Assembly: GCA_963746855.1 (NCBI GenBank)
Contig: CAVVDC010000002.1
Coordinates: 7,588-71,587, forward strand
DNA: 64,000 nucleotides
Direction: 5' to 3'
DNA from: an uncultured Chloroflexia bacterium
GTDB lineage: Bacteria; Chloroflexota; Limnocylindria; Limnocylindrales; CSP1-4
The notes under the pieces are model-generated. The model was not told where the DNA came from. It did not search any database and saw nothing but the letters and a program-made list of their open reading frames with translations. Below, piece by piece: positions 26,558-58,600 of this stretch. Within the stretch, counting starts at the first letter, position 1. Each line of letters begins with the position of its first letter. A program made the translations under genes and the position numbers.

Positions 26558-26561
26558 CGGG

Positions 26562-29000: not shown

Positions 29001-29044
29001 CGCCTACACCCCTTTTCGCCCCGAGGGGCTCACTACGGCCGTGT

Positions 29045-30307: not shown

Positions 30308-30463
30308 CTCGCTCTGATCTTGCTCTTCGGGTAGGTGATCGGTCCGAGGATCGATCGAAGGCCCTTGACGACGGCGGGCGCGCGACCCCTGGTGGGTCCG
30401 CCGCGCCCGCCGCGTCTGGGCTGTCTCAGCTCGGCCGACGTTCGGCCGTTTCCGGTCTAGGCC

Positions 30464-31405: not shown

Positions 31406-31571
31406 TGTAGCATCGGCCCCGGGGCCCGCGACTATACGAAAGGCCTAGGACCATTAGGAGGAAACGGCAGGAATCCGTGCGTGACGCAAGGTTTCCTGAA
31501 AGGTCGGGGCGAGACGTGCCCGGCCGTCCGTGACGTGGTGCGCGACCCCTGATGCAGGGGCCGAAAACGTC

Positions 31572-36076: not shown

Positions 36077-37692
36077 GGGCAGGCGATCTCGAAGGCCCGA
36101 ACGTCGCCGAGCGGATCGTCTCGACCCGTCGGACCGGGGCCCAGCTCGAGCTCATGGAAGCACTCGACGTCCGGCCCGGGCTGGTCGAGGACGCCCGGCC
36201 AGCCGCCGTGGTCGGCGCCGATGACGATCACGAGCCGTGTGCCCGCGAAGGCCGGATCCGACGCCAGGTCGACGATGTCGCTGGGCTTCTCCGCCGGGAG
36301 GGCCAGCGCTCGGACGCCGTGCGTCTCGGCCAGCCAGATCGGGAAGTTGGTGACGATCGGCCCGCTCGACGCGTCAAGCGGATGCCCGATGGCCGCCATC
36401 CGCGTGGCCAGCTCCTCGTACAGGGTGGCGGTCGCGCGTGAGCCACTGCCGAATGACGGCAGGACCGCGATCGAGAAGAGCAGCGATCCGAAGACCCCGA
36501 GGAGGGCCCCGAGCCAGGCCACCGGCCGCGTCCAGCCAAGCCGCACGCCGAGGCGAGCGATCCCTGCGTCCAGGGCCAGGAGTGCCGACAGGACGAGCAG
36601 GACGTGGACGGGACCCGCAGCGTGCAGGAACGTGCCCCAGGTCGTCGCGACCGGGAAGGCGAGGCTCGTGATGAGGAAGGTCATCAGCCCCAGGAGGACG
36701 ACCGGGCGGACGGCTCGGTCGCGACCCTGCCACGGCAGCGCGGCGAACCCGATGAGCGAGATCGGCACCCCCGGCAGCAGCAGGACGGAGAACAGGTTGT
36801 GGGCCAGACCCTCCACCCGCATCTCGAGGAGCCGGGCAGGCCCGACCGCGAGGTAGCGGGCGAGCGTGGGCGGATCGTTCCAGGCGAAGATGTCGAAGCC
36901 CGTCACGGACAGGGCGTTCGCCGCCGCCTGGCCCGGCAACGGGCTGCCGAAGACCACCCAGTCGCGCCACGCCCACGGCGCGAAGACCAGGAGGGCGACC
37001 GCGCCGACGAGGCCGATCATCCGGACCCGTTCGGTCCGGGTGGACGCGCGTGCCCGCCACGCCACGATGGCCCACGTCAGCCCGATCCAGATCGCCTCGT
37101 TGCGGGTCAGGGCGGCCAGGCCGATGAGCGCTCCGAGGCCGATGACGCGTGGATCGCCCAGGCGGGCACCGCGCGGCTCGCGCGCGATCCGGGTCATCAG
37201 CAGGCAGGCCGCGAGGGCGAGCACGGCGAACGACATCGTCGAGTCCGGCAGGGCCGAATGCAGGAGCAGGGGCAGGTAGAACGCCGTCGTCAGGCCCGTG
37301 CCGAGGGCCAGGGTCCGGGCGCGCCCGGTGGGCAGGCCGCGCTCCTCGGCGACGTCCGCGGCGAGGCGCCAGGCCAGGACCGGCACGACCGCCCCGACGA
37401 CGATCGAGGAGACCTGCGCAGCCTGGAACGTCGAGCCGGCGATGGCCATCGGGATCGCGGCGAGGAACGTCGGCAGCGGCAGCCACACCTCGAACGCGGG
37501 CCGCGGGAAGATGAGCGGCGGTGTCTGGTAGCTCCACAGGGCATCGGACACCAGCCCGCGTCCGTCGAGCAGGTTGCGCGCGACGCCGACGTAATAAGCC
37601 GTGTCTTCCGGCTTGGGGAACACGATCTGCGAGGCGAAGATCGCACGCGTCACCAGCGCCACGACGAAGACGAGCGCGACGGACAGCCACAT
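36073..37692 (-). CDS. ArnT-like GT-C-fold membrane glycosyltransferase
   Basis: Polytopic. The first-loop motif (PEDTAYYVGVARNLLDGRGL...) parallels its upstream paralog. The start is set at ATG 37692 (MWLSVALVF). Confidence 0.7.
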   Translation of the reverse strand: MWLSVALVFVVALVTRAIFASQIVFPKPEDTAYYVGVARNLLDGRGLVSDALWSYQTPPLIFPRPAFEVWLPLPTFLAAIPMAIAGSTFQAAQVSSIVVGAVVPVLAWRLAADVAEERGLPTGRARTLALGTGLTTAFYLPLLLHSALPDSTMSFAVLALAACLLMTRIAREPRGARLGDPRVIGLGALIGLAALTRNEAIWIGLTWAIVAWRARASTRTERVRMIGLVGAVALLVFAPWAWRDWVVFGSPLPGQAAANALSVTGFDIFAWNDPPTLARYLAVGPARLLEMRVEGLAHNLFSVLLLPGVPISLIGFAALPWQGRDRAVRPVVLLGLMTFLITSLAFPVATTWGTFLHAAGPVHVLLVLSALLALDAGIARLGVRLGWTRPVAWLGALLGVFGSLLFSIAVLPSFGSGSRATATLYEELATRMAAIGHPLDASSGPIVTNFPIWLAETHGVRALALPAEKPSDIVDLASDPAFAGTRLVIVIGADHGGWPGVLDQPGPDVECFHELELGPGPTGRDDPLGDVRAFEIACP

Positions 37693-37703
37693 CTCGCGGC
37701 GGG

Positions 37704-39359
37704 TCACGAGGCGCTCCTCGTCGCAGCGCAGCGGTGATCGTCGGGTTCGACGCAGACCGGGTAGACGCCCACGCCGAAGCGCCCGTCGCCGCCGGGGGTG
37801 GCGGTCCGCGGCTCCGTGTAGACGGGCGAGCCGATCCACGCCGGCCGGGTGTCACTGTCGAGGATCGGCCCCGCGACCGTCACGGTGTCACCGGCATCGA
37901 GGACGAGCCAGTGGATGCCATACGCGCGCGCGACCGCCTCGACCGTGTCCAGCGGGTCGTTGACGAGGACCACGCCGCCCCGGCCGGTCCAGAACCGGGT
38001 GCCCGACGCGTCGATGGACATGACTCGGTCGCTCACCGGGGCCCCCACCGCGTCGAGTGCGGCCGCGACTGCGCGGAACCGGTCTGCCCGCTTCGCCCAG
38101 TTGGCGTGGACGACGAGCGTGCCGCCGACGGCACAGACGACCGCGAATACCACCGCCGCGGTCCCGAAGAATCGGGCGCCGGCCTCGGCGTCCCAGGCCG
38201 GGCGCCGGCGGGCGACCCAGGCGACCCCGACTGCGATGCCCTCAAGGGCGAGGATGTAGGAGTGCGGCGCGAGCCCGATCGCAGAATGGATGAACGTGCC
38301 ACCGGGGACGTGGACGGCCGAGACCAGGGCGGAGAACGCGAACAGGAGGCCGGCGAAGGCGAAGAACGGCCCGAAGTCGATCGATCGACGCCGCGCCCAG
38401 CCGCCGACGACCATGAACGGGGCGAGCACGAACCCAGCGACCAGGGTCGCGTAGATCATCACGGCGGCCGCCAGGCCCCCGACCCGACTGGCGATGAGCG
38501 GACCGGCGCCCATGCCCAGGAGGTGCTCCAGGGTGGCCGGCGTCGTGATGCTGTTCCACTCCGAGATGTCACGGATGAACAGGACCTTGCCGGATGCCGT
38601 CGATGGCGAGAGCGACCCGAAGACCGCCAGCTGTCGGGCCCACCATGGCGCCATGACGAGCGCGAAGAGGGCGACACAGGCGACCGCCGCGGCGAATGGG
38701 ATGGCCGGTCGTCGCGCCCCGCGCGAACGCCAGGCTCGCCAGCGATCCCACGCGAAGGCCAGGCCGAGGGCGACCAGGACCAGGAGTCCGTCATTGCGGG
38801 ACAGCGTCGCCAGGCCGGCGAGCAGGCCCGCGCCCGCGAAGGCCCGGCCCGATCCCTTGAGTCCACGGGCGCCGAGCCACAGGGAGCCCGCGACCAGTGG
38901 CTGGTAGAGCGAGAAGTTGTCCGGCTGGACGAGATAGACCGCCGACAGCAACGGGACCGCGACGAGAACACCCGCGCCGGTCTGCACCCAGGAGCGGGCT
39001 CCGGCGTCGCGCGCGATCGCCCAGGTCAAGGGTGCGGCCAGCGAGCCGATCAGGGCGAACGGTGCCGCCGACGCCCAGGCGACATCGCCGAACACGGCGA
39101 GGAACGGCACCTGGACGATGGACGCGAGCGGCATCCAGTGCGCGTTCGACGCGATGGGCAGGACCGGGTCGGCCGGAAGCTTGCCGCCGACCTCGGCGAA
39201 GATCCAGATGAAGTCGACGTTGAAGCCCTGCCCCGCATGGAGTGCCCGCGCGACGTCGACGTAGTAGGACGAATCGGGGTAGGCCGGCTCCGGGAAGTGC
39301 CAGATGAGGACCGCCCGAACGGCCAGGGCGAGCCCGTACAGCAGTAGGGGGATACGCAC
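37704..39359 (-). CDS. ArnT-like GT-C-fold membrane glycosyltransferase
   Basis: 551 aa and polytopic. The N-terminal motif reads YPDSSYYVDVARALHAGQGF. It has a soluble C-terminal domain. Confidence 0.72.
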   Translation of the reverse strand: MRIPLLLYGLALAVRAVLIWHFPEPAYPDSSYYVDVARALHAGQGFNVDFIWIFAEVGGKLPADPVLPIASNAHWMPLASIVQVPFLAVFGDVAWASAAPFALIGSLAAPLTWAIARDAGARSWVQTGAGVLVAVPLLSAVYLVQPDNFSLYQPLVAGSLWLGARGLKGSGRAFAGAGLLAGLATLSRNDGLLVLVALGLAFAWDRWRAWRSRGARRPAIPFAAAVACVALFALVMAPWWARQLAVFGSLSPSTASGKVLFIRDISEWNSITTPATLEHLLGMGAGPLIASRVGGLAAAVMIYATLVAGFVLAPFMVVGGWARRRSIDFGPFFAFAGLLFAFSALVSAVHVPGGTFIHSAIGLAPHSYILALEGIAVGVAWVARRRPAWDAEAGARFFGTAAVVFAVVCAVGGTLVVHANWAKRADRFRAVAAALDAVGAPVSDRVMSIDASGTRFWTGRGGVVLVNDPLDTVEAVARAYGIHWLVLDAGDTVTVAGPILDSDTRPAWIGSPVYTEPRTATPGGDGRFGVGVYPVCVEPDDHRCAATRSAS

Positions 39360-39567
39360 GGCCGGTGCAGCGTAGCACCGGGTTCCGGACTCGCCGACCA
39401 GTACCTTTCGCCTATCCGTGAGGAACGGCCGATGGGGCTGGATGGCAGGCGAATCGCCGCTCGGGACCAGGTCGCCGGCCTCCGACGAAGTGGGTCAGGC
39501 CCACATCCCGACGCGACGGTACGATGGAATGGTGTCCATCGAACGCCGCGGCTGACACGATGCCGGG

Positions 39568-40386
39568 ATGACCCCAGCCCGGGCCGTTCGTGACGGCGCC
39601 ATCGTCGCCGGCCTGCTCTTCACCGCGTATCTCTTCCTCGTCGTCGCGCCATCCGCCGGGACCTTCGGGTTCGACGCGTTCGCCTACTGGGCGGTCGATG
39701 GCAGCAACCCGTACGGGACCGGCGTCGGCGGGCTCGGGGCCTTCAACTACTCCCCACCGATCGCGCGGCTGTTCGACCCGTTCGGGGCGATCTCGTGGCC
39801 GGCGTTCCTGTGGATCTGGACGGCGCTCCTTATTGCGAACCTCGTCTTCCTCGGTCGGCGCGGCGTTCGGACGCTCTGGCTCCTCGCCCTGCCCCCGGTC
39901 GCCCTCGAGCTGTACCACGGCAATATCCATCTGTGGATCGCGGCGGCCATCGTGCTGGGCTTCCGCTACCCGTGGACCTGGGGATTCGTGCTGCTGACGA
40001 AGGTGACCCCGGGGGTCGGGCTCGTATGGTTCGCCGTTCGACGAGAGTGGCTGGCCCTGGCCATCGCGCTTGGGGTCACCGGGGCCATCGTGGGCGTGTC
40101 GGTGGTCGTGGATCGCGACCTGTGGGTCGACTGGATCCAGTTCCTATCCACGACGCCGGAAGGAGGATCCGTCGCCCAGTTCCAGATCGCCATCCCGCTG
40201 CTCATCCGGTTCCCTCTGGCCATCATCCTCGTCGCCTGGGGTGGCCTGACCGACCGGCGCTGGACGGTGCCGCTCGCTGCGACGTTGGCGCTGCCGGTCC
40301 TCTGGGTGAGCGGGTTCGCCATCTGCGCGGCCTGCCTGCCGCTCCTCGGGCGCCCGATCGCGACTCAGCCGGTCGCCGGACCGTGA
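39568..40386 (+). CDS. short GT87/DUF2029-like membrane protein
   Basis: 272 aa. The motif FDAFAYW...NPYG...FNYSPPIARLF and LTKVTPGVGLVWFAVRREW mark it as a paralog of 51357..52214. Confidence 0.6.
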   Translation: MTPARAVRDGAIVAGLLFTAYLFLVVAPSAGTFGFDAFAYWAVDGSNPYGTGVGGLGAFNYSPPIARLFDPFGAISWPAFLWIWTALLIANLVFLGRRGVRTLWLLALPPVALELYHGNIHLWIAAAIVLGFRYPWTWGFVLLTKVTPGVGLVWFAVRREWLALAIALGVTGAIVGVSVVVDRDLWVDWIQFLSTTPEGGSVAQFQIAIPLLIRFPLAIILVAWGGLTDRRWTVPLAATLALPVLWVSGFAICAACLPLLGRPIATQPVAGP

Positions 40387-41939
40387 CCGCCCACGCGGGC
40401 ACGGTCGCACCCGCGACCGAGCCGGTCCGGCGCCGCGGCGTCGGATGGCAGGCCCTCCTGTACCCGGCCGCCTTCCCGCTGAGCATCATCGTGCTCATCT
40501 GGGGGGAGTCGGAGATCAACCTCCTCGAGATCGTCCGACCCGTGCTCGTCGCCCTCGTCGTCACGGTCGGCCTCAACGTCCTGCTCGGTTGGCTGGCCGG
40601 TGACCGCCGGCTCGGGGCGATCGCGACGTCGGCCCTCATGATCGGGCTCATCGTCGATCGGCCTGAAGCTCGCATCCTGCTTGTCGTGGTTGCGGGCGCC
40701 GTCGTCCTCATCGGCTATGCCCCCCAGGGACGGACGCTCCGGGTGGCTGCCACGGCGACGCGGCTCCTTGAGGTCATCGGGACGATCGCGCTGGGCGCGG
40801 CACTCCTGTACGTCGCCGGGCGACCCGGTTTCCTCTCGGTCATCGGCGAGGCGTTCCTCCCCCCGCCCGGTCCCGCCACTCGTCCGATGCCACCGAATGG
40901 CACGCCCGACATCGTCGTGTACCTCATCGACGGTTACCCGGGTCTCACCGCCGCGTCACGGCTCCCCGGATTGGACGCCGCCGTCTTCCCGGACGCCCTT
41001 CGGGAACGGGGGTTCACCGTCCACGCCGACGCGCGGACGAACTACCTGATCACCCGGATCGTGCTCGCCTCGATGCTCGAGGGCCGGCACATCGCCGATA
41101 TTCCCTCGCTCTCGGCGCCGTTCGGCGATGACCCCGCCGTCGACGCCCGTCGCCTGCGGTCCGTCCAGGAGACCTCGGCCGGCCTGGCCGCCATCCGAGC
41201 GGCCGGGTACGACGTCGTGTGGGTATCGTCCGGCTGGTCCCATCTCGACATCCGCAACGTCGACCGCCGGATCGAGGCGCCCGGCCCGAGCGAGTTCGAG
41301 ATGGTCCTGTTCCGCGAGACCGCCATCGCCGACATCCTCGAGGCGATCGACCCGGCCGGGTTCGCCGACGTCATGCGGACGCGTATCGAGGCCGCTTTCG
41401 ACGAGGCCACGGCCATCGTGGCCGAGCCCCACGATCGGCCACGCTTCATCTTCGTCCACGTGCCGGCGCCCCATCCCCCGCCGGTCTACACCGCCACCGG
41501 CGCACCGGAGGACCGCAGCCCCGATTCGAGCTGGGACACGTTCGATCCGGCGTCGCAGACGCCGAGCCAACGCCTCGCCCTGCGGCCGGGGTTCGTGGAG
41601 ACGATCGGCCGGATGACCGTCGCGAGCGTCGACGCGGTACGATCCGCGGCCCCGACGCCGCCGGTGATGGTCGTCTTCTCCGACCATGGCACCGACGTCG
41701 GCTGGGATGACAGCGCGCCCATGACCTCCGATCTGGCCGAACGCAGCAGTTCGTTCCTCGCCACCCTGACCCCGGGGCGCCCGGACCTCTTCCAGGAGCC
41801 GACCACGCCCGTGAACATCATCGGGACGCTGACGAACGCCTACATGGGCACCGCCGTGCCCCGTCAGCCCGACGAAACCTTCGCCTATGACGGGTCCGTG
41901 CTCAACGTGGTCCCGATCCAGACGACCCCAGGCGACTGA
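40383..41939 (+). CDS. membrane-anchored alkaline-phosphatase-superfamily protein (sulfatase/LtaS/EptA-like), paralog 1
   Basis: N-terminal TM bundle followed by an extracytoplasmic domain with DIVVYLIDGYPG, RTNYLITRIV and VVFSDHG. A GTG start at 40383 overlapping the upstream stop (GTGA) is proposed, and the exact start is uncertain. Confidence 0.65.
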   Translation: MTAHAGTVAPATEPVRRRGVGWQALLYPAAFPLSIIVLIWGESEINLLEIVRPVLVALVVTVGLNVLLGWLAGDRRLGAIATSALMIGLIVDRPEARILLVVVAGAVVLIGYAPQGRTLRVAATATRLLEVIGTIALGAALLYVAGRPGFLSVIGEAFLPPPGPATRPMPPNGTPDIVVYLIDGYPGLTAASRLPGLDAAVFPDALRERGFTVHADARTNYLITRIVLASMLEGRHIADIPSLSAPFGDDPAVDARRLRSVQETSAGLAAIRAAGYDVVWVSSGWSHLDIRNVDRRIEAPGPSEFEMVLFRETAIADILEAIDPAGFADVMRTRIEAAFDEATAIVAEPHDRPRFIFVHVPAPHPPPVYTATGAPEDRSPDSSWDTFDPASQTPSQRLALRPGFVETIGRMTVASVDAVRSAAPTPPVMVVFSDHGTDVGWDDSAPMTSDLAERSSSFLATLTPGRPDLFQEPTTPVNIIGTLTNAYMGTAVPRQPDETFAYDGSVLNVVPIQTTPGD

Positions 41940-43492
41940 TGACGACTGCCGTCGACGCCTTGAGCGCGCCCGTCCCGCCCCAGACCAGCCGGGCGTGGTG
42001 GCCGATCCCGCTCTACCCGACGGCGTTCCCGGTGAGCTTCGTGCTGCTCATCTGGGGGAATGCGGTCTTCAACGTGATCGACCTCATCCGCCCCCTCGTC
42101 GTTGCCGTGGTGCTCGCGCTCGCGGTGACGCTGGTCGCGTGCTTGCTGGCGGGCGACCGGCGGTTCGGCGGGATCGCGGCGACGGCCGTGCTGGTGGGGC
42201 TGGTCATCGACCGACCCGAGGCGAGCGTCTTGCTGGCGGCTACCGGCCTCCTCGTCGTCGTCGTGAGTCGACTGGGCCGCCGGCAGGCCGAGCGTGCGCA
42301 GGGGGTGGCGACGCGCCTGCTCCAGATCATCGCGAGCATCATCTTGCTGGCGACCGTGATCAACGCGGCGAGCAAGCCCGGTTTCGTGCCGGTCATCGAG
42401 GAGGCGTTCCTGCCACTTCCCGGACCCGCCGAGCGACCGGTCCCGGACCCGAGCCAGCCAGACATCTTCGTGTACCTGCTCGACGGGTACCCAGGTTCGA
42501 CCGGATCCGCCGAGGCGACCGACTTCGATGCCGACGCCTTCCCGGACGCCCTCGCCGGGCGCGGATTCGAGATCCACCGGGACGCCCGGACCAACTACCT
42601 GCTCACCCGGCTTGTGGTGCCGACGATGTTCGAGGAGCGCCACGTCGCGGACATCCCGGGTCTCGCCGAGCCATTCGGGCCGTACCAGGCCGATGACGCC
42701 CGACGACTGCGCCTGACGCTCGAGACGTCGGCCGGACTCGCCGCGATCCGCGCCGCGGGCTACGACGTCGTGTGGATCTCCTCGGGCTGGAATCACATCG
42801 ACCTGCGCAACGTGGACCGTCGGATCGAGGCGCCCGGTCCCGATGAGCTCGAGATGGCGATGATCTGGGCCAGCGGCATCGGCACGATCCTGCAGGCCGT
42901 CGACCCCTATGGATTCGCCGATGTCCTGCGGACACGCATCCACTCTGCTTTCGACGCGGCGCGGACCATCGCGGCCGAGCCGCATTCGCGACCAAGGTTC
43001 GTCTTCGTCCACGTCCCGTCGCCGCATCCGCCACCCGTCTTCCACGCCGATGGGTCGCCGGTGGACTTCGGACCGGCCGCTCGCTGGGACAACTTCCAGG
43101 AGGGCGTCGGCTCATCCGACGCGCATCGCCGGCGCGTCTTCGGGAATGTCGAGGCGGTCGGGCACCTGGCGGTGGCCGGGATCGATGCCCTCCGGGCGGC
43201 CGCCGACCGACCGCCGGTCATCGTCGTCTTCTCCGACCACGGCACGGACATCGGCTTCGAGCCGGACGACCCCTTGTCGCATGACCTCGATTCGCGCACC
43301 AGCTCGTTCCTGGCGACATTGACACCCGCGCATCCGGAGCTCTTCCAGGCCCCGACGACTCCCATCAACATCATCGGCACGCTCACGAATGCTTACATGG
43401 GCACGAACGTCCCGCGCCAGCCGGACGAGACCTTCGCCTACGACGGCTCGGTGCTCAACGTCGTCCCGGTCGAGACGACACCGGGCGACTGA
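41939..43492 (+). CDS. membrane-anchored alkaline-phosphatase-superfamily protein, paralog 2
   Basis: 517 aa with the same architecture (DIFVYLLDGYPG, RTNYLLTRLV, VVFSDHG). The C-terminal roughly 60 aa are nearly identical to paralog 1. Confidence 0.7.
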   Translation: MTTAVDALSAPVPPQTSRAWWPIPLYPTAFPVSFVLLIWGNAVFNVIDLIRPLVVAVVLALAVTLVACLLAGDRRFGGIAATAVLVGLVIDRPEASVLLAATGLLVVVVSRLGRRQAERAQGVATRLLQIIASIILLATVINAASKPGFVPVIEEAFLPLPGPAERPVPDPSQPDIFVYLLDGYPGSTGSAEATDFDADAFPDALAGRGFEIHRDARTNYLLTRLVVPTMFEERHVADIPGLAEPFGPYQADDARRLRLTLETSAGLAAIRAAGYDVVWISSGWNHIDLRNVDRRIEAPGPDELEMAMIWASGIGTILQAVDPYGFADVLRTRIHSAFDAARTIAAEPHSRPRFVFVHVPSPHPPPVFHADGSPVDFGPAARWDNFQEGVGSSDAHRRRVFGNVEAVGHLAVAGIDALRAAADRPPVIVVFSDHGTDIGFEPDDPLSHDLDSRTSSFLATLTPAHPELFQAPTTPINIIGTLTNAYMGTNVPRQPDETFAYDGSVLNVVPVETTPGD

Positions 43493-44736
43493 CCGCCTGT
43501 GCGGTCCCGGATCGCGAGGGCCAGCACGACCGCGAACGCGATCATCAGGACCACCGGGACGCGGACCGGCGGGCCCTCGACGGCGTTCGCGCTGATCGAG
43601 TTCGTGACAAGGATGACCAGGGGTGACAGCGCCAGCGCGATCCCGATCCAGCCACCGTTCGCCCGTTCACGCAGGCCGCGGTAGGCGATGGCCGCGGCCG
43701 GGACGAGCAACAGGTCGTCGTGGGGGTTGAGGTGCGGACTGGTCAGCAGCCCGATGACCAGCGTCAGGGCGAAGCGCAGGTCGAAGTCCCGAGTCGCGGG
43801 GCTCCACCGACCGCGCCAGAGCCAGGCGACGGCCGCCAGGCCAAGGAGCTGTCCGGCAAGGCCGATCGTGTTGATGACGGTCGCCTGGCCGGCGGCCTGA
43901 TCGGGTCCGATCAGCAAGGTCAAGGTTCCTCGGAGGTTCCACATCACCGACGGCCGGACGCTGAACTCGTCGAACGTCGAGACGTACCGCGACAGGAAGC
44001 CCAGGTACTCGGACCAGATCCCCGGGCCGAGGACGACCGTCGCGATCGCCGCCAGGCCCAACCCGATCGCGGCCCCTGACGCGATGGCCCGCCAGCGGCG
44101 ACCGAGGAGCAGCATCACCCCCAGCGTGACCACCGCCTGCGGCTTGATCGAGGCGATCGCCAGCCAGGCTCCCGATCGGCCGTCGCGGCCGGTCCGGAGG
44201 GCGATGTAAGCCTCGGTGACGGCGACGCAGACGAGCAGCGAGAACGCGCCCTGCAGGAGCGTGATGACCAGGGGCGACGCCGCCACGGATGCGGCGATGA
44301 GGACCAGTCGCTCGTCTCGCGACCACTCGGCGGCGACGACCGTCCACAGTCGCCACAGCAGCCAGACGAGCAGGGCGAGCTGCACGACCGCCCACGCCAA
44401 ATAGCTGGCCTGGAGCGACAGCCAGGCGAGCGGGACGAACGGCACGACGAGATGGGGCGGGTTGTTGAAGGGATTCAGGCCGGCCTCGAAGGTCCGGCCG
44501 CCCAGGATCTCGCGCTGGACCTCAGCCTGGACGGCCGGGTCGTAGAGGTCGGCACCGCGGCCGTCCGAGACGATCGTCCAGCCCGTGTAGAACGCCGTGT
44601 AGTCGGCCTGCTCGGAATGGCCACCGGCGATGAGCGCCACCCAGAGCCCGAGGTAGATGGCGAAGACGGCGATGCCGACGACGACGAACACGCGACTGAA
44701 GAGTCGACGTCGGCCGGTCGCGGTTCGTTCGTCCAT
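43438..44736 (-). CDS. GT87/DUF2029-family membrane glycosyltransferase
   Basis: The start is set at ATG 44736 (MDERTATGRRRLF), with AGGAGG upstream. The motif reads DYTAFYTGW...ADLYD...FNNPPHLVVPFVPL. Confidence 0.7.
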   Translation of the reverse strand: MDERTATGRRRLFSRVFVVVGIAVFAIYLGLWVALIAGGHSEQADYTAFYTGWTIVSDGRGADLYDPAVQAEVQREILGGRTFEAGLNPFNNPPHLVVPFVPLAWLSLQASYLAWAVVQLALLVWLLWRLWTVVAAEWSRDERLVLIAASVAASPLVITLLQGAFSLLVCVAVTEAYIALRTGRDGRSGAWLAIASIKPQAVVTLGVMLLLGRRWRAIASGAAIGLGLAAIATVVLGPGIWSEYLGFLSRYVSTFDEFSVRPSVMWNLRGTLTLLIGPDQAAGQATVINTIGLAGQLLGLAAVAWLWRGRWSPATRDFDLRFALTLVIGLLTSPHLNPHDDLLLVPAAAIAYRGLRERANGGWIGIALALSPLVILVTNSISANAVEGPPVRVPVVLMIAFAVVLALAIRDRTGGQSPGVVSTGTTLSTEPS

Positions 44737-44901
44737 CGCACCTCCTGCCGCCGTCCGGCTCGCGCGCCCACAGGACCATCGGGGGATGCGAGGGGCCCGC
44801 CGACCTCCGCCATGATGGACTGCGACGGTTGCACGAATGCACCGCGTTCGGCACGCTGTGTGTTGCCCGCGCCCCCGAGGCGTCGGCGGAGGACTGATCG
44901 G

Positions 44902-45081
44902 ATGCTGCATCTTCTGGCATACATCGACCCGGGCTCGGGGAGCCTCATCATCCAGGCGGTGATCGCGACGCTCGTTGCCGTCCCGTTCTTCTTCCGGCAG
45001 CAGATCGCCCGCGTGGCTCGCACGTTCCGCGGCGACCGGACGGGCGAGCCGCCGACGACGCCGACGGACCGCGCCGCCTGA
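44902..45081 (+). CDS. small membrane protein (59 aa) with an N-terminal YIDPGSGS motif
   Basis: MLHLLAYIDPGSGSLIIQAVIATLVAVPFFF..., with GGAGG 9 nt upstream. It lies in the divergent spacer between the GT87 gene and paralog 3. Confidence 0.45.
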   Translation: MLHLLAYIDPGSGSLIIQAVIATLVAVPFFFRQQIARVARTFRGDRTGEPPTTPTDRAA

Positions 45082-45158
45082 GCCACGGTCACGCGGTGAG
45101 TCGGCCGCTGTGACCGCATCGACAGCGTCGGCGCCGGAGACCAGAGCGAACACGCCCG

Positions 45159-46685
45159 ATGACGGCCCCGGGCCCGTCGCGACCCTGGTGGCGGATCCCC
45201 TTCTATCCGATCGCGTTCCCGAGCGTCCTGGTGACGCTGATCTGGGCTGGCGCCGGTCTGCCGCCGATCGCCGGGGTCCGCCCGCTCCTGGTCGCGCTCG
45301 TCATCGGCGTCGTCGTGACGTTCCTGTGTTGCGCCGTGACCGGCGACCGGGACCGCGGTGGCGTCCTGGCGACCGTCGTCCTCATCGGCCTCATCGCGAC
45401 CGATCCGCGACTCCTGTGGATCCTGGCGATCGCCGGTGTCCTCCTGCTGCTCGAGTCGATCGTCCGGCGCGGGCATCCGTGGCGGCTCGGGCCGCTGGCG
45501 ACGCGGCTCATGACGATCGTCGCCGCGATCCTGCTGTTCGCGGCCGGGATCCGGATGGTGCAGGACGGGACGATCCCGGCGGCCATGACCGACCTGTCTG
45601 ACGAGTTCGCAACGCGCCCCGGACCGGCCGTCATCGACCGGTCACGCCCGGATATCTACGTCGTCGTCCTCGACGGGTACCCGGGCCCACGAGCGACTGC
45701 CCACGACCCGGCCTTCGACGCCGACGCCTTTCCGGCGGCCCTCGGGCAGCGCGGGTTCGTCGCGCAGGCCGACAGCCACTCGAACTACATGTTCACGCCG
45801 CTCAGCCTGACCTCGATGCTCTGGATGCGCCACATCGAGGACATCCCGTCCCTCGGCCCCCCGTGGGACTCCGGCAATGGCGACGGCCGCCGGCAGCGCC
45901 GGGCCTTGAACGAGGCCCCGGCTCTCGACGCGCTCGCCTCGGAAGGGTACGAGCTGGTCGCTGTCGCCTCGGGGTACGACCACGTCGAGCTCCGGCGAGT
46001 GGATCGGGTGATGTCGCTCCCGGAGCCGGGCGAGTTCGAGCTGGCGCTGGTGCGCCTGTTCCCGGCCGGCCACCTGCTCGACACGGTGTTCCCGGATCTG
46101 CTGTCCGGCATGGTCCGCGGTCGGGTCCTCGACGCGTTCGACGCGGTGCGCCAGGTGACGACCGAGCCCCATGATCGGCCCCGCTTCGTGCTAGGGCACA
46201 TCCCGGCGCCCCACTACCCCTTCGTCTTCGGCCCGGCCGGCGAGCCTCGCACGGTCCCGCTGGAGCGGCTCTTCGTCCAGGATCCGGGCCGCCTCGGCGT
46301 CTCGACCGAGGAGGCGTTCCGTCTCGCCACGGATCAGGCCGCCTACGTCGCCTCGCTCACGACGGACCTCGTCGATGACATCGTCGCCGCGGATCCGGGC
46401 GCGGTCGTCGTCGTCATGTCCGACCATGGGAGCGGCATCGGTCTCGACTCAGCCGATGCCTCGAAGAGCGATCTCGTCGAACGGTTCAGCAACATCATGG
46501 CGATCCGGGCCCCGGGCCACTCGGACATCCTCTCGCGCCGGCTGACGCCGGTGAACCTCATGCCTCGGCTGTTCGACACGTACCTCGGTCTGTCGGTGCC
46601 CGAGACGACCGACGCCACGTACTCGTGGACCACGAGCACGCTCGACCCGAAGCTGGTGACGCCGGTGCCGGAGTGGGTCCAGTGA
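45159..46685 (+). CDS. membrane-anchored alkaline-phosphatase-superfamily protein, paralog 3
   Basis: 508 aa with DIYVVVLDGYPG, HSNYMFTPLSLTSM and VVMSDHG. Confidence 0.7.
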   Translation: MTAPGPSRPWWRIPFYPIAFPSVLVTLIWAGAGLPPIAGVRPLLVALVIGVVVTFLCCAVTGDRDRGGVLATVVLIGLIATDPRLLWILAIAGVLLLLESIVRRGHPWRLGPLATRLMTIVAAILLFAAGIRMVQDGTIPAAMTDLSDEFATRPGPAVIDRSRPDIYVVVLDGYPGPRATAHDPAFDADAFPAALGQRGFVAQADSHSNYMFTPLSLTSMLWMRHIEDIPSLGPPWDSGNGDGRRQRRALNEAPALDALASEGYELVAVASGYDHVELRRVDRVMSLPEPGEFELALVRLFPAGHLLDTVFPDLLSGMVRGRVLDAFDAVRQVTTEPHDRPRFVLGHIPAPHYPFVFGPAGEPRTVPLERLFVQDPGRLGVSTEEAFRLATDQAAYVASLTTDLVDDIVAADPGAVVVVMSDHGSGIGLDSADASKSDLVERFSNIMAIRAPGHSDILSRRLTPVNLMPRLFDTYLGLSVPETTDATYSWTTSTLDPKLVTPVPEWVQ

Positions 46686-48208
46686 GGCGGGGCCTCGCGC
46701 TCTATCCAGCCCTGCTGGCCGCGACGCTCGTCGTGGAACTCGTGAACGTCTCGGGCGTCAGCCCGTTCTCGGCGGGTCGTCCGTTGCTCGTGGCGGTCGT
46801 CGCCGCGCTGCTCCTCGCCTTGCTGGGCCGCGTCCTGCTCGGCGACCCCGACCGCGGCGGGATCGCGGCCGCCCTCTGGGTGCTCGCGCTGCTCGGCGGC
46901 GACGATCCGCGCCTGGCCCTCGCGATCGGGGCGGCGACGGTCCTGCTCTTCGCGGAGCGATATCTGCTCCCGGCGGAGCGCCGGACCATCCGCTGGTCGA
47001 GGATCGGGCTCGTGTTCTCCCGACTGGCCGTCGTGTTCGCGCTCGCGGTCGCGATCCAGGCCGTCCAGACGGGTGCGCTCTCCGATGCCGTCCGCTCGGT
47101 GACCCACGAGACCGCCCTGCGTCCGGCGGCGGCCAGGGCCGCCTCGGGCGACACGGATCCCGATATCTACATGCTGCTCGTGGACGGCCACGCCCGAGCC
47201 GACGTTGTATCCTCCGTCTTCGAGAGCGACGGCGCGGGGCTCGTGAGCGCCCTCCAGTCGGACGGATTCGCCGTGGCGCCTCGAAGCCGGTCCAACTACA
47301 CCCAGACCGGCGAGACGCTGGCGTCGATGTTCAGCCAGGCCCAACTCGCCGACGTCCCGCGCATGGCCGACCTGCTCAGGGTGGCCGAGGACCAGCCGCC
47401 GGGCGGCATCGTCCGCAACGTCATCAACGACAACGCCACCTGGTCGTTCCTGCGCGACCGCGGGTACGAGATCGACTCGGTCTCGTCGGGTTTCGAGCAG
47501 GTCGCGCTGCGCGAGGCGGACCGGTTCGTGGACACCGGTCAGCTCAACGAGTTCGAGCTCGCGGTCCTCAAGCGCTCCGTCATCGGCCGGGTCCTCGAAG
47601 GCGTCGCGCCGGACGCCGTCAGCGGCCAGCAGCGGGACCGGATCCAGGGGATCTTCGATGCGTTCGCAACGGCGCCCTCATGGATCGGCGACCGGCCGCA
47701 GTTCGTGTTCGCCCATGTCCCGAGCCCGCATCCGCCATGGGTCTTCAACGCGGATGGGTCGCCGCGCACGGTGACCTTCCATGACCAGTGGCTGGCCGAG
47801 ACGCCGGCCTCGACCGGGCTGACCGTCGAACAGCTCAAGGCCGGGTACGCGGCGCAGGTCACCGACACAGACCGGCGCCTGCTCGAGGCGCTGCCCAGGC
47901 TGGACGCGGCGATCGCCGCCCGCGGCCGACCCGCGGTCGTGATCGTCTTCTCCGACCACGGCTCGTGGATCGGCGCCGACGGTGGCGACATCCGGCTCCG
48001 GTTCAAGAACCTGCTCGCGGTCCGTTCCTCCGACGACCGGGTGACCTTCGAGCCGAACCTGACGCTGGTGAACCTGTTCCCGAGCCTGTTCGAGCAGCTC
48101 TTCGGCGTCGAGTGGGTCCGTCGCCCGGACGCCGAATACCGGTTCGGGGAGCGCAGCGCGTTCGAATTGTTCGAGGTCGCGGACCCGGACGCCTCGGCCA
48201 GCCCGTAG
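46682..48208 (+). CDS. membrane-anchored alkaline-phosphatase-superfamily protein, paralog 4
   Basis: GTG 46682 overlaps the upstream stop (GTGA). Motifs are DIYMLLVDGH, RSNYTQTGETLASMF and VIVFSDHG. Confidence 0.65.
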   Translation: MRRGLALYPALLAATLVVELVNVSGVSPFSAGRPLLVAVVAALLLALLGRVLLGDPDRGGIAAALWVLALLGGDDPRLALAIGAATVLLFAERYLLPAERRTIRWSRIGLVFSRLAVVFALAVAIQAVQTGALSDAVRSVTHETALRPAAARAASGDTDPDIYMLLVDGHARADVVSSVFESDGAGLVSALQSDGFAVAPRSRSNYTQTGETLASMFSQAQLADVPRMADLLRVAEDQPPGGIVRNVINDNATWSFLRDRGYEIDSVSSGFEQVALREADRFVDTGQLNEFELAVLKRSVIGRVLEGVAPDAVSGQQRDRIQGIFDAFATAPSWIGDRPQFVFAHVPSPHPPWVFNADGSPRTVTFHDQWLAETPASTGLTVEQLKAGYAAQVTDTDRRLLEALPRLDAAIAARGRPAVVIVFSDHGSWIGADGGDIRLRFKNLLAVRSSDDRVTFEPNLTLVNLFPSLFEQLFGVEWVRRPDAEYRFGERSAFELFEVADPDASASP

Positions 48209-48218: not shown

Positions 48219-49019
48219 ATGTCCGCCGCCGACAGCCTGACGATCGTGCTGCCCGCTTATGACGAGGCGGAACGGATCGGCCCGGCGCTCGATGAGTTGT
48301 TCGGATACCTGCGCCGACGAGGGGATCGGGCTCGAGAGGGCGCTCCCGGGTCGGCCGGCCTGCCGGCACGGATCGACGTCCTGCTAGTGGACGACGGCAG
48401 CACCGACGGGACGGCCGCCCTCGTCCGCTCCCGACCCGAGGTCGCCGGCGACGCCGCGGTCCGCCTCGGCGTCCTGACCGTGCCCCACGGTGGCAAGGGC
48501 GCCGCGGTCCGGGCCGGGATGCTGGCCGCCGAAGGCGATCTCGTGGTCTTCGCCGACGCGGACATGGCGACCCCGCCCGATCAGCTTCCGCTGCTGGTGG
48601 CCGCGCTGGCCGACCACGACGTCGCGCTCGGGTCGCGGATCCAGGCCGATGGCTCGGACATGCGCGCCACCCAGCCGCGCTACCGACGCCTGTTCGGCAA
48701 GGCGTTCCACCTGCTCGCGTCGGCATGGGTCGTCGGGCCGGTCAAGGACACCCAGTGCGGCTTCAAGGGCTTCACGCGCGACGCCGCGCGCGACCTGTTC
48801 GCGCGACAGCGGATCACGAGCATCGTCTTCGACGTCGAGCTGATCTACCTGGCTCGTCGGCGCGGCTATCGGATCGACATCGTCCCGATCCACTGGTACG
48901 ACCGGCGCGGGTCGCGGATGCGCGCTCGGCCGGGTCTGGCCTTGCGCGTGGCCTGGGACCTCTTCCGCATCCCCCTCATCCATCGCGCCGACGGCCGGGG
49001 CGCCCGCCGGCCCACGTGA
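48219..49019 (+). CDS. GT2 polyprenol-phosphate glycosyltransferase (dolichyl-phosphate glucose/mannose synthase-like)
   Basis: Motifs LTIVLPAYDE, VDDGSTDGT, FADADMATP and DTQCGFKGF. Confidence 0.85.
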   Translation: MSAADSLTIVLPAYDEAERIGPALDELFGYLRRRGDRAREGAPGSAGLPARIDVLLVDDGSTDGTAALVRSRPEVAGDAAVRLGVLTVPHGGKGAAVRAGMLAAEGDLVVFADADMATPPDQLPLLVAALADHDVALGSRIQADGSDMRATQPRYRRLFGKAFHLLASAWVVGPVKDTQCGFKGFTRDAARDLFARQRITSIVFDVELIYLARRRGYRIDIVPIHWYDRRGSRMRARPGLALRVAWDLFRIPLIHRADGRGARRPT

Positions 49020-50101
49020 CCGCCGCCTTCGACCCGCCTCGGTTGGCCCGAGCGGCGCTGCCGATCGTCGCCATCCTGTGCTTCGCGGCGGTGATCGGTG
49101 CGACGGTCGCCGTCGCCGGTGACACGCTCGGGTTCGATTTCCTCGCCTACCACCAAGCAGCGACCCGACTGCTGGCAGGGGCCCGGGTCTACGACCTCGG
49201 GTTTGAGGCGAGCGGCGCCTTCGGGCTCTTCTACTACCCACCGACGTTCGTGCCGCTCGTCCTGCCGTTCGGGTTGCTGTCGGCCACGACCGCGGTCTGG
49301 GTCTGGACCGGCCTGCTGGTCGCGGCGTTCCTCGTCGGTGTCGCGATCCTGCCGGTCTCGGCGACGGTGCGCTGGTGGACGGTCCTCCTGGCAGGCCTGT
49401 CGTGGCCGTTCGCCTACGCGGTCAAGCTCGGCCAGGTCGGACCGATCCTGTTCCTCTGCTTCGCCGTCGGGTGGCGCTGGCTGGACGATCCGGTCCGCCT
49501 CGGCTTGAGTGGTGCCCTCGGCGCGGCGATCAAGCTCCAGCCTGGGCTCATCCTCGTGTGGGCGCTGCTGACTGGGCGATACCGAGCCGTCATCGTCGGC
49601 GCCATCGGGCTGCTCCTCCTCGCAGTCGCCGCGACCCTGACCGCCGGCATCGGGTCATGGGCCGACTTCGTCACGCTCATCCGCCAGGTCAGCGACCCGA
49701 TCACGACCGCGCACAACTTCACGCCCGGCGCGATCGTGTATCAGCTGGGCCTGAGCTCGGACGTCGCGGGCCTGGTCCAGCTGGCCAGCACGGTCGCGGT
49801 ACTGATCGCCGTCGTGGTCGCGGCCCGGTTCGCGACCGCCGAGGCGTCCTACCTCGTCGCGGTCGTCGCCAGTCAGCTGCTCTCGCCGATCCTCTGGGAC
49901 CATTACGCGATGCTGCTGCTGCTGCCCGTCGCGTACCTGCTCGCGGCCGGGCGCTGGTGGGCGCTCGCCATCCCCCTCGTGACCGCGTTCCCATTGGTCG
50001 GCATCACGCCGCCGGTCGTCTACCCGATCGTGTTCTGGGTCGCGCTCGTCGCGACCGCCATGGTGGGTGTCCGATCGCGGGCCAACGGCGTCGCCGCGTG
50101 A
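49016..50101 (+). CDS. GT87/DUF2029-family membrane glycosyltransferase
   Basis: GTG 49016 overlaps the GT2 stop (GTGA). The motif reads FDFLAYHQAATRLLAGARVYD...FYYPPTFVPLVLPF. Confidence 0.7.
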   Translation: MTAAFDPPRLARAALPIVAILCFAAVIGATVAVAGDTLGFDFLAYHQAATRLLAGARVYDLGFEASGAFGLFYYPPTFVPLVLPFGLLSATTAVWVWTGLLVAAFLVGVAILPVSATVRWWTVLLAGLSWPFAYAVKLGQVGPILFLCFAVGWRWLDDPVRLGLSGALGAAIKLQPGLILVWALLTGRYRAVIVGAIGLLLLAVAATLTAGIGSWADFVTLIRQVSDPITTAHNFTPGAIVYQLGLSSDVAGLVQLASTVAVLIAVVVAARFATAEASYLVAVVASQLLSPILWDHYAMLLLLPVAYLLAAGRWWALAIPLVTAFPLVGITPPVVYPIVFWVALVATAMVGVRSRANGVAA

Positions 50102-51321
50102 CCGAGCGCGGCGATCGCGCGATCCTGGTCGGCGTCGGGCTCGTCGCCGGGTCGGCGCTCGTCTACTTGCTCGCGAACCACCTGTTCGGGGCCGGTCGGC
50201 CGGACTTCTTCTACCTCGCCGACGCGTTCCTCCACGGCCGGACCTGGCTGGCCTTCCAGCCCGGTCCGTACGACGTCATCATCGTCGGCACCCACTTCTA
50301 CGTGCCGTTCGCCCCGTTCCCGGCCGTCGCGCTCATGCCGCTCGTCGCACTCATCGGGCCGGATGCGGCCGCCGGCCGGGAGCCGGTCGTCAACGCGTTC
50401 CTCGCGGCGAGCACCGTCGGGCTGTGCTGGTGGTTCCTCGGCCGGGTCAAGGTCGCGCGCCTCAGCGACCGCGTCTGGCTGACGATCCTGTTCGGGTTCT
50501 CGACCCAGATCCTCTGGGTGACCACCCGCGGCGGCGTCTGGCACACCGGGCACCTGATCGCCACGATCCTGACCTTCGCCTGCCTCATCGAGCTGTGGGG
50601 CCGCCAACGCGCCTGGCTCATCGGCCTGCTGGCGGGAGCGGCGTTCCTGACCCGCGCGCCGCTCGCGTTCGCGATCCCGTTCTACGCGCTGATGCTCGAC
50701 CCGCGGCCGGCCCTCGCCGCCGCGACCGTTCCGGGCGGCTACATCGAGCGGGCGAAGGGGTTCCCGTGGCGCTCATGGGTCTGGCTCGGGATCGGCGCCC
50801 TCCCGGCGCTCATCGCCTTCTTCGCCTACAACCAGATCCGGTTCGGGACGCCGCTCGAATCCGGCTACGCCCTGGCGACGCTCCCGCCGTTCCTCGAGTA
50901 CCTGCGCGACCAGGGGCTGTTCTCGGTCAGCCACATCACCATGAACCTTGACTACCTGTTCCTCCACCTGCCGCGACCGATCCCGGACTTCCCCTTCTTC
51001 ATGCCCGACGGCATGGGCATGTCGATCTTCCTGACCAGCCCGGGCCTGTTCTTCGCGGTGCGAGCGGACTGGCGAGAGCGACGCGCCTGGTTGCTCTTCG
51101 GGGCGACGATCGCGGTCCTGATCCCGACGCTGCTCTACTACGGAGGAGGCTGGCTCCAGTACGGGTACCGCTACTTCCTCGACTCGGTCCCGTTCGTCAT
51201 CGCCTTGTGCGGCCTGGCCGCCGCGTACCGAGGCTCGATCGGCACCGGCTGGCGCGTCCTGATCGTGTTCGGGGTCGTGGTCAACGCGATCGGCGTCTAC
51301 TGGGCGTACAACCTGCACTGA
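50098..51321 (+). CDS. GT-C-fold membrane glycosyltransferase (ArnT/PMT_2-like)
   Basis: GTG 50098 overlaps the upstream stop (GTGA). Polytopic, with the loop motif FFYLADAFLHGRTWL...YVPFAPFPA. Confidence 0.55.
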   Translation: MTERGDRAILVGVGLVAGSALVYLLANHLFGAGRPDFFYLADAFLHGRTWLAFQPGPYDVIIVGTHFYVPFAPFPAVALMPLVALIGPDAAAGREPVVNAFLAASTVGLCWWFLGRVKVARLSDRVWLTILFGFSTQILWVTTRGGVWHTGHLIATILTFACLIELWGRQRAWLIGLLAGAAFLTRAPLAFAIPFYALMLDPRPALAAATVPGGYIERAKGFPWRSWVWLGIGALPALIAFFAYNQIRFGTPLESGYALATLPPFLEYLRDQGLFSVSHITMNLDYLFLHLPRPIPDFPFFMPDGMGMSIFLTSPGLFFAVRADWRERRAWLLFGATIAVLIPTLLYYGGGWLQYGYRYFLDSVPFVIALCGLAAAYRGSIGTGWRVLIVFGVVVNAIGVYWAYNLH

Positions 51322-52214: not shown

Positions 52215-52287
52215 GTCCGCCAGTATCGACGTTTCGGCTCGCGCCGGTCGCCGGGCGCTCGCGGCGCTCGCATGCGAGACTCAGGAC

Positions 52288-54555: not shown

Positions 54556-54603
54556 TCGCCGGTCGCGGTCAGGTTGCTGTCGCAACCATCTTCCCGGGGC
54601 CGA

Positions 54604-54612
54604 TGCTATCCT
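54604..54612 (+). promoter_or_regulatory. candidate extended -10 (TGcTATCCT), 7 nt before the ATG (leaderless mRNA candidate)
   Basis: TGCTATCCT at 54604-54612 and ATG at 54620. No Shine-Dalgarno sequence lies between them. Confidence 0.3.
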
Positions 54613-54619
54613 CCGGCCG

Positions 54620-58590: not shown

Positions 58591-58593
58591 AGT
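58585..58593 (+). promoter_or_regulatory. candidate extended -10 (TGcTAGAGT), 7 nt before the ATG (leaderless candidate)
   Basis: TGCTAGAGT at 58585-58593 overlaps the upstream TAG stop. The ATG is at 58601. Confidence 0.3.
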
Positions 58594-58600
58594 CGGACGC

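Follow-up and report, generated by a model that had tools for sequence, protein, structure and literature searches.

A variable tandem array of EptA-like membrane proteins in a putative glycan assembly locus of Candidatus Limnocylindria

The question that this locus raises is what a bacterium does with four neighbouring genes for membrane-anchored proteins of the alkaline phosphatase (AP) superfamily that are interspersed with genes for glycosyltransferases. The locus lies in a stretch of 64,000 nucleotides from an uncultured soil Chloroflexia bacterium of the GTDB order Limnocylindrales (assembly GCA_963746855.1, contig CAVVDC010000002.1, positions 7,588 to 71,587); this stretch, which has ~70% G+C, is termed the window, and all coordinates refer to it. 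Candidatus Limnocylindria are known mostly from metagenome-assembled genomes (MAGs), and a locus that combines about ten GT-C-type enzymes, a polyprenyl-phosphate-sugar synthase and EptA-like phosphotransferases of a lineage-specific family opens a view on their envelope chemistry. The reading that we favour, albeit with some reserve, is that the four gene products are phosphotransferases acting outside the cytoplasm, from a distinct branch of the AP (sulfatase-type) superfamily, and that they would decorate a glycan using the headgroups of lipids. As judged by profile comparisons and structure models, their nearest characterised relatives are the phosphoethanolamine (PEtN) transferases EptA, MCR-1, EptC and OpgE.

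All four genes lie on the forward strand. P1 (40383-41939, 518 aa, GTG start) is followed by P2 (41939-43492, 517 aa, 56% identical to P1), and P3 (45159-46685, 508 aa, 36% identical to P1) by P4 (46682-48208, 508 aa), which at 28% identity to P1 is the most divergent paralog. The start and stop codons overlap as TGATG between P1 and P2 and as GTGA between P3 and P4, and the two pairs are separated by a reverse-strand GT87 glycosyltransferase gene (43438-44724) and a small open reading frame (ORF; 44902-45081). The original prediction, made from the letters of the sequence alone, had described this arrangement of paralogous ORFs of about 510-525 aa, and the measured coordinates and lengths together with pairwise BLASTP (E from 0 for P1-P2 to 5.5e-40 for P1-P4) bear it out. 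A 527-aa version of P4 starting from a GTG at 46625 also appears in the ORF list; however, translation likely begins at the coupled GTG at 46682, which overlaps the P3 stop and is used by gene callers on the near-identical contig L081, which is described below.

Single sequences gave only a weak superfamily signal. Against the Pfam Sulfatase model PF00884 (gathering cutoff 25) P1 to P4 scored 28.5, 21, 11.4 and 23.5 bits, and 22 of 35 homologs matched the model at E ≤ 0.01, the best at 8e-11. Nothing in NCBIfam matched the four proteins significantly, a match to STM4013 being insignificant, and a profile built from the four sequences retrieved nothing but noise from the PDB sequences (CNOT9, olivetolic acid cyclase) and was set aside. 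Significance against the PDB was reached only with family profiles of 35 and 127 sequences, the larger of which found the S1 sulfatase 6s21 (E 2.9e-6) and Neisseria meningitidis EptA (E 2.6e-3); the profile alignment pairs HvpaPHaP of the family with H..GSHGP of EptA, and fSDHG with vSDHG. AlphaFold2 models of P1 (pLDDT 89.8, pTM 0.88) and P4 (pLDDT 88.2, pTM 0.90) share one layout, with transmembrane (TM) helices at residues 22-145 and 8-129, respectively, followed by an alpha/beta domain. In Foldseek searches of the PDB the best matches of both models were full-length EptA (5fgn, the top match of P1) and full-length MCR-1 (9nww), with probability 1.0; the next ranks were taken by the catalytic domains of MCR-1, MCR-2, EptC and ICR-Mc (target-normalised TM-score 0.55-0.64) and then by S1 sulfatases. 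The two models had 138 and 161 matches at E ≤ 1e-3, and for each of them all 50 of the 50 matches listed belonged to the AP superfamily. The claimed superfamily membership is thus confirmed by significant family-profile matches and by concordant fold searches. An anti-phage defence function of the PglZ type was considered and dropped, as none of the four AP proteins matched a PADLOC model at E ≤ 1.

The catalytic residues could be placed by comparing the family profile, using hhalign, with a reference alignment of the E. coli K-12 eptA, eptB, eptC and opgE products, which it matched over 267 columns spanning the whole catalytic domain (probability 94.8%, E 5.2e-8). Comparisons with EptA, OpgB and BcsG as single sequences were weak and partial, and the four-sequence PEtN transferase alignment was needed. 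It can be seen that T224 of P1 falls on T282 of E. coli EptA, the second Thr of GTAT, which we take to be the nucleophile position corresponding to Thr280 of the N. meningitidis enzyme, and that M231 is paired with the Met of PCMF. H359 and H364 fall on the HxxxxH pair H380 and H385, and D434 and H435 on D455 and H456, the metal-binding Asp-His pair. The spacing of D183, T224, H364 and D434 (41/140/70) compares with 38/103/70 for E244, T282, H385 and D455 of E. coli EptA, and T224 sits at the N-terminus of a helix. When conservation was assessed over 110 full-length copies, drawn from 73 related loci and the window, D183, T224, H359, D434 and H435 were invariant (110/110) and H364 was present in 109. 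The candidate Thr nucleophile and Asp-His metal motif therefore both align with EptA residues and are conserved throughout the family. Of the sequence motifs initially proposed for the array, the cores D..DG, [RH][TS]NY..T and SDHG are found in all four proteins, but the longer patterns as written fit only P1 and P2: P3 reads DIYVVVLDGYPG and VVMSDHG, and P4 DIYMLLVDGHAR and IVFSDHG. No C/S-x-P-x-R formylglycine motif stands at the nucleophile position, where P1 to P4 have TRIVL, TRLVV, TPLSL and TGETL, so that they are not formylglycine sulfatases.

Each protein has five hydrophobic segments, with Lys and Arg residues concentrated in the N-terminus and in the TM2-3 and TM4-5 loops, and hydropathy and the positive-inside rule predict an N-in, C-out topology that would place the catalytic domain outside the cell. 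The expected plan of five N-terminal TM helices and an outer domain is therefore present, and it is the layout of EptA, LtaS and BcsG. A further conserved residue is R52 at the outer end of TM2, found in 106 of 106 copies. Since the residue set is conserved and the predicted topology is N-in/C-out, all four paralogs look catalytically competent and outward-facing.

How might such enzymes work? We envisage a ping-pong reaction like that of EptA, LtaS and GacH. A divalent metal held by D183, T224, D434 and H435 would activate T224, which would attack the phosphodiester of a membrane phospholipid reached via the TM module; diacylglycerol would be released while the phospho-headgroup, either phosphoethanolamine or glycerol phosphate (GroP), stayed on the Thr, to be handed on to a hydroxyl group on a glycan or lipoglycan of the cell surface. 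Both halves of the scheme have precedents: EptA, with five TM helices, forms an intermediate at Thr280 (PMC6111236), and GacH is an AP-superfamily GroP transferase that is encoded in a polysaccharide cluster and uses phosphatidylglycerol (PG) as donor (10.1101/337519). The GT-C enzymes of the GT87 and PMT_2 types that are encoded in the same operon would assemble the acceptor glycan on the extracytoplasmic side of the membrane, using polyprenyl-phosphate sugars supplied by the adjacent GT2, and the acceptor position or structure would differ from paralog to paralog. Chloroflexota are generally known to be without lipopolysaccharide, so lipid A cannot be the acceptor.

The gene context fits a role in glycan assembly. 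Upstream of P1 lies GT87a (39568-40386, forward strand), which encodes a 272-aa GT-C glycosyltransferase (PF09594, 2.3e-12) and whose stop overlaps the P1 start as GTGA, an arrangement suited to translational coupling. GT87b, the reverse-strand gene between the two pairs, encodes a GT-C protein of family 87 of ~428 aa (PF09594, 5.6e-27). Starting 10 nt after P4, a GT2 gene (48219-49019, forward; PF00535, 7.3e-21) encodes a protein resembling polyprenyl-phosphate hexose synthases of the DPM1/ArnC/GtrB type, with NCBIfam matches to dolichyl-phosphate hexose transferase and ArnC-like models. It is followed on the same strand by GT87c (49016-50101, 361 aa; PF09594, 1.7e-22) and by a polytopic membrane protein (50098-51321), each joined to the preceding gene by a GTGA overlap; the latter is conserved in synteny and likely GT-C-like, having no Pfam match and a weak match to the LA_3751/3752 putative glycosyltransferase family. 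On the left, two PMT_2-type (ArnT/PMT-like) GT-C glycosyltransferases are encoded on the reverse strand at 36073-39359 (PF13231, 3.6e-6 and 8.3e-9); the two ORF calls overlap, the true start of the first being probably internal, and the pair is syntenic in most relatives. Across dozens of MAGs the order runs from a response regulator and histidine kinase through the two PMT_2 genes, a GT87, the AP array with or without an internal GT87, the GT2, a further GT87, the polytopic protein, a major facilitator superfamily (MFS)/spermidine synthase protein, a GNAT and a second polytopic protein to UDP-glucose dehydrogenase and an epimerase. By its predicted products, this is the gene set of a machinery that assembles a glycan outside the cytoplasm from polyprenyl-phosphate sugars. 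In a distant relative (L074, 321-5199) a PIG-V-type Mannosyl_trans2 protein, an 825-aa GT87::AP fusion (P0052) and another GT87 are encoded together; as the fusion comes from a single 6.4-kb contig, we did not adopt it as Rosetta-stone evidence and kept it as weak support only.

Several findings weigh against placing the four proteins with phosphotransferases of the EptA kind. P2, P3 and P4 score below the PF00884 gathering threshold; the first metal ligand is Asp (D183) rather than Glu and lies one column before E244 of EptA; the second-site His of EptA and MCR-1 (in 'LHG') has no counterpart, the query having a gap there in the hhalign comparison; the TM module cannot be aligned with that of EptA by sequence using hhalign; and PF08019 (EptA_B_N) was not detected in the four proteins at E ≤ 1 or in 35 homologs at E ≤ 0.01. 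The fusion P0052 could itself be an assembly error of one nucleotide, because GT87 and AP genes overlap as GTGA and a 1-nt indel would fuse them. Like EptA, MCR-1, EptB, EptC and OpgE (the YhbX/YhjW/YijP/YjdB family), P1 to P4 have five N-terminal TM helices and an outer domain corresponding to the periplasmic sulfatase-fold domain of those proteins; however, they share only 12-16% identity with that family, they occur in variable tandem arrays beside GT-C genes, their host belongs to a Chloroflexota lineage, and the invariant residue of their membrane module is Arg (R52), whereas the conserved one in EptA is a Glu proposed to bind the amine of PEtN (PMC6111236). As the proteins show neither of two family-defining features, the PF08019 domain and the Glu ligand with the second-site His, we filed them not as Ept enzymes but as a branch of their own within the PF00884 clan. 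Nor should phosphatidylethanolamine (PE) as donor and PEtN as the transferred group simply be assumed, given the Asp-for-Glu exchange, the lack of the second-site His and the invariance of Arg in the membrane module. As the metal ligand, the second-site His and the membrane module differ from those of EptA and LtaS, the family could widen the donor and acceptor range of the AP superfamily; what is known of the enzyme class in general is unchanged, and the value lies in a new lineage and a new subfamily.

A potential explanation that would not need to invoke transfer at all is that the proteins are membrane-anchored hydrolases (phosphodiesterases, phosphatases or sulfatases) with a role in phosphate or sulfate scavenging or in the trimming of envelope polymers. 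Sulfatases and nucleotide pyrophosphatases/phosphodiesterases are indeed among the sequence and fold matches, and the soluble domain of EptA alone keeps esterase activity (PMC6111236). Type I (S1) sulfatases share PF00884 with P1 to P4 and provide the best sequence-level PDB match, 6s21 covering the PH.P and SDHG motifs; in contrast to them, P1 to P4 have an invariant Thr in place of the formylglycine motif, a polytopic membrane anchor and a biosynthetic gene context. Moreover, an invariant Arg and other conserved positions in the TM module would be needless in a mere anchor, close coupling with GT-C and GT2 genes ties the array to a conserved locus for biosynthesis, and no phosphate- or sulfate-uptake genes lie nearby. 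We regard a hydrolytic function as improbable.

Slightly less probable still is that one or more of the proteins are LtaS-like polymerases, which by repeated transfer of GroP from phosphatidylglycerol would build a poly(glycerol phosphate) chain resembling lipoteichoic acid on a glycolipid supplied by the glycosyltransferases next to them, the copies sharing out the parts of primase and polymerase. Five TM helices, an outer domain of the AP superfamily, and a site with Thr as nucleophile and an Asp-His metal pair are common to LtaS, LtaP, OpgB and P1 to P4 (for LtaS and LtaP, 10.1101/337519). The lack of the EptA second-site His makes the family more like a single-metal enzyme, and a weak hhalign match to OpgB pairs T224 with the Thr in the PGTDYT motif of that protein. 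Unlike the LtaS/LtaP/OpgB proteins, however, P1 to P4 match no NCBIfam or Pfam model of that family beyond the generic PF00884, the NCBIfam models for lipoteichoic acid synthase included. Structures of the LtaS, LtaP or GacH type are not in the top 50 Foldseek matches of either the P1 or the P4 model, both lists being headed by PEtN transferases, and OpgB reached E 0.053 against 5e-8 for the EptA family, an uneven comparison of a single sequence with a four-sequence alignment. A range of 1 to ~8 copies and allelic replacement would also suit decorating enzymes better than an essential polymerase. For the polyol-phosphate polymerase set that had been offered as an option in the original prediction, we found nothing in favour, LtaS-type structures being absent from the top 50 fold matches of both models.

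As a system, the GacH/SccH pathway with GacI-GacL is one of the two closest analogues of the locus, since there too an AP-superfamily phosphotransferase is clustered with a GT2 polyprenyl-phosphate-sugar synthase and a GT-C transferase; it decorates the extracytoplasmic rhamnopolysaccharide of streptococci with GroP from a phospholipid donor (10.1101/337519). GacH nevertheless differs from P1 to P4 in having 11 TM segments, an LtaS-type domain with a Glu-Thr-Asp-His Mn site and a single copy. The cellulose pEtN transferase BcsG is likewise a 5-TM AP-superfamily protein that modifies a nascent polysaccharide and whose gene comes straight after a microprotein gene of its operon; however, it matches the family only at the EHG/DHG motif (hhalign E 0.14), and its nucleophile is Ser.

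Could the enzymes instead use the product of the GT2? In such a reaction the Thr would attack a GT2-made polyprenyl-phosphate sugar, the polyprenol would leave and the sugar 1-phosphate would be passed to the glycan, yielding phosphodiester-linked sugar branches. The P4-type gene stands directly upstream of the polyprenyl-phosphate-hexose synthase gene in most relatives, as it does across the 10-nt gap of the window, the TM module bears no sequence relationship to the one in EptA, and its outer-leaflet invariant residue is the Arg found in place of the proposed amine-binding Glu. We know of no AP-superfamily enzyme with a polyprenyl-phosphate sugar donor, however, and the co-located GT-C enzymes already explain the use of such sugars, so that we think glycosyl-phosphate transfer very unlikely. 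Least credible of all is a modification of proteins, in the manner of PptA on pilin or Campylobacter EptC on FlgG, for example of Flp/Tad pilins encoded ~10-15 kb upstream: EptC-type enzymes do act on multiple targets, a Tad/Flp cluster lies at ~25.6-31.4 kb of the window and Flp pilin genes adjoin the locus in one relative (L080), but the conserved linkage and translational coupling of the array are with glycosyltransferases and not with pilus genes, and in the relatives compared the AP-family genes adjoin genes for glycan synthesis.

We next consider the origin of the array, for which the original prediction had proposed that P1 and P2 arose by a recent duplication, citing near-identical nucleotides at 41850-41936 and 43403-43489. 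Only 71 of these 87 positions match (82%). Among conserved residues, P1 and P2 use identical codons at 27 of 47 positions in the last 60 codons and at 160 of 283 over the whole gene, 57% in both cases; the fraction for P1-P3 and P1-P4 is 54%. Because the codon sharing of P1 and P2 in the tail equals that of the whole gene and barely exceeds 54%, synonymous sites are saturated, and the idea of a recent duplication fails, since the synonymous divergence of the C-termini has the saturated level of the gene as a whole. Gene conversion of the two C-termini was rejected on the same ground. Given this saturation, we attribute the likeness of the C-termini to selection on the protein. P1-type and P2-type genes form distinct clades in a neighbour-joining tree and are adjacent in other genomes too (L001, L002). 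Over a 55-nt stretch (43438-43492) the 3' end of P2 overlaps that of the convergent GT87b, and the same kind of overlap between an upstream AP gene and a GT87b-type gene is present in L001, L002 and L004. On the antisense strand of the P1 3' end a GT87b-like tail is still readable (SPGVVWIGTTLSTDPS).

The AP-family part is the variable part of the locus. The number of AP-family copies per locus ranges from 1 to ~8, counts above 6 being approximate because split copies may be assembly frameshifts: in loci of MFD MAGs (L003, L008, L012, L013, L018, L027, L057 and others) many copies are broken into 2-3 adjacent fragments, which may reflect such frameshifts rather than pseudogenes. One apparent fusion, protein P0044, was discarded, since a frame error has clearly run two AP genes together. 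The closest GTDB relative is MAG MFD02242.bin.2.217 (L001), to which the window flanks are 92% identical. In nucleotide sequence the centre, 39512-46251, is 74.7% identical between the two and the flanks 92% and 87%; in protein sequence the flanking genes reach 89-99%, P1 85% and P4 89%, against 58% for P2 and 42% for P3. P3 is the most variable type among species-level relatives, with no more than 43% identity in any GTDB representative locus, and an exact look-up of P3 in the contig index gave no match. The P4-type copy, which adjoins the GT2 gene in most relatives, is by these comparisons the conserved one, P2 and P3 being variable. The GT87 content varies as well. A 366-aa GT87 lies between the PMT_2 genes and GT87a in L001-L005 and is not in the window, where 39360-39567 corresponds to this extra site (L001 7951-9051), while GT87d (51357-52214, reverse strand, 285 aa; PF09594, 2.1e-7) is present in the window and in L081 and absent from L001, L002 and L005.

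Variation can also be seen between near-identical strains. L081 is a 13.9-kb JGI contig with the same layout as the window, and GT87b, the microprotein, P3 (97.8%), P4, GT2, GT87c, the TM protein, GT87d and the MFS protein are all 96-98% identical between the two; P2 is only 75.6% identical. In a sliding window, identity was 85-96% over the 3' half of P1 and the start of P2 (40985-42184), fell to 72-78% in a sharply bounded 1.2-kb block within P2 (42185-43384, residues ~83-482, against L081 1201-2400), and from 43385 on was 93-99% apart from one window of 88% inside P4. Because this low-identity block is sharply bounded in an otherwise near-identical locus, the comparison indicates that it arose by allelic replacement through recombination; P1 was not the donor, being only 65-70% identical to P2 at the nucleotide level. 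The changing copy number and the replaced block suggest that a diverse cell surface is selected for, with phages, predators or antimicrobial peptides as possible drivers, and within the favoured phosphotransferase scheme P4-type enzymes would form a conserved core and P2 and P3 variable cassettes that diversify surface decoration from strain to strain. The original prediction therefore stands as an observation except for the age of the duplication, and its interpretation is supported in part; the recombining variable cassette, and the conserved microprotein that follows, go beyond it.

The small ORF upstream of P3 (44902-45081, forward, ending 78 nt before it) encodes a 59-aa protein with a single TM segment, MLHLLAYIDPGSGSLIIQAVIATLVAVPFFFRQQIARV..., and is a real, conserved gene. 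Matches were found by tblastn in 47 of 74 sequences (the 73 loci and the window). The homologs encoded as separate small proteins (52-70 aa) number at least 619 and have been assigned to no named family; the core AYIDPGSGSLIIQAVIAT.VA.PFFFR.QI.R..R..R is near-invariant. The only PADLOC match, to a phospholipase effector model, was not significant (E 0.047). The charge distribution predicts an N-out/C-in orientation, in which case the DPGSGS motif would share a side with the catalytic domains. In 17 cases, including the window, fewer than 400 nt separate the microprotein gene from an AP-family gene downstream of it; in a further 28 the distance is 0.4-3 kb, mostly ~1.4-1.5 kb. In the loci inspected (L021 8517-9927, L022 8459-9895) the gap is filled by a gene for a ~478-aa class-I S-adenosylmethionine methyltransferase-like protein with an FRDPSGFV N-terminus and a weak match to Methyltransf_12, which a tblastn probe found in more than 30 loci and which is not in the window. 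The microprotein is a new candidate partner of the AP-family enzymes. As sole precedent we can name BcsF-BcsG, a genetic analogy only: in E. coli the gene for BcsF, a single-pass microprotein, stands immediately ahead of that for the pEtN transferase BcsG, but BcsF makes no contact with BcsG (PMC11470070), and BcsF is unrelated in sequence to the microprotein of the window.

A bolder version of the phosphotransferase reading, which we consider unlikely though worth stating, is that the locus specifies an undescribed envelope pathway of Ca. Limnocylindria: a lipoglycan resembling glycosylphosphatidylinositol (GPI) or lipomannan, made outside the membrane by GT-C enzymes, whose phospho-decoration would be diversified between strains by the array through gain, loss and allelic replacement of lineage-specific EptA-like enzymes. 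The microprotein would be their dedicated partner, and the donor might be a lipid other than PE or PG. In the GPI pathway, the other of the two closest analogues at the level of the system, the AP-superfamily headgroup transferases PIG-N, PIG-O and PIG-G likewise act beside GT-C mannosyltransferases (PIG-M, PIG-V, PIG-B) and the GT2 synthase DPM1, and a PIG-V-type gene is present in the L074 locus. The likeness to PIG-N/O/G that had been suggested holds for the catalytic domain but not for the TM layout: most TM segments of the PIG proteins are C-terminal to the catalytic domain, whereas in P1 and P4 all TM helices precede it and nothing follows. A literature search found nothing relevant on Chloroflexi with LtaS or lipoteichoic acid or on GT87 with sulfatase, and no paper on the cell-envelope chemistry of Ca. 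Limnocylindria.

How widespread is the family? A word-indexed search returned 53 relatives, every one of them labelled 'hypothetical', and an exhaustive search of metagenomic proteins with a hidden Markov model returned 6885 clusters (at 50% identity) at E < 1e-30 and 15874 at E < 1e-3, mostly of full-length proteins of ~500 aa. Among contigs from one genome per species, relatives were encoded on 154 stretches, of which the 73 loci were kept. Chloroflexota is the label of 70 of these, many of them Ca. Limnocylindria or Limnocylindrales; the remaining three are labelled Steroidobacteraceae or Actinomycetota and are MAG bins that may be mislabelled. We conclude that this is a large family without a name that is essentially confined to Ca. 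Limnocylindria.

The remaining genes of the window extend the locus on both sides. To the right of GT87d lie a fused MFS/spermidine-synthase-like protein (52105-54555), a FemAB-like GNAT (54494-55825), a GT4-like glycosyltransferase (~55830-57029) that is an extra of the window between the GNAT and the further polytopic protein (57079-58590, 503 aa, without family), UDP-glucose dehydrogenase (58526-59806) and an NAD epimerase/dehydratase (59680-60828). An Alg6/GT87-like GT-C gene is found at 62314-63660 on the reverse strand. The conserved left edge, to the outside of the PMT_2 pair, is formed by a LuxR-type response regulator and a HisKA_3 histidine kinase (34188-36076, reverse strand), whose position is kept in L001-L008, L012, L013, L021, L022 and L040; this pair may regulate the locus. 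The N-terminus of the kinase has no obvious TM segment. Further left, the Tad/Flp pilus cluster (25625-31444, reverse strand) encodes RcpC/CpaB, a response-regulator-fused ParA/MinD-like ATPase and a CpaF-type T2SSE ATPase.

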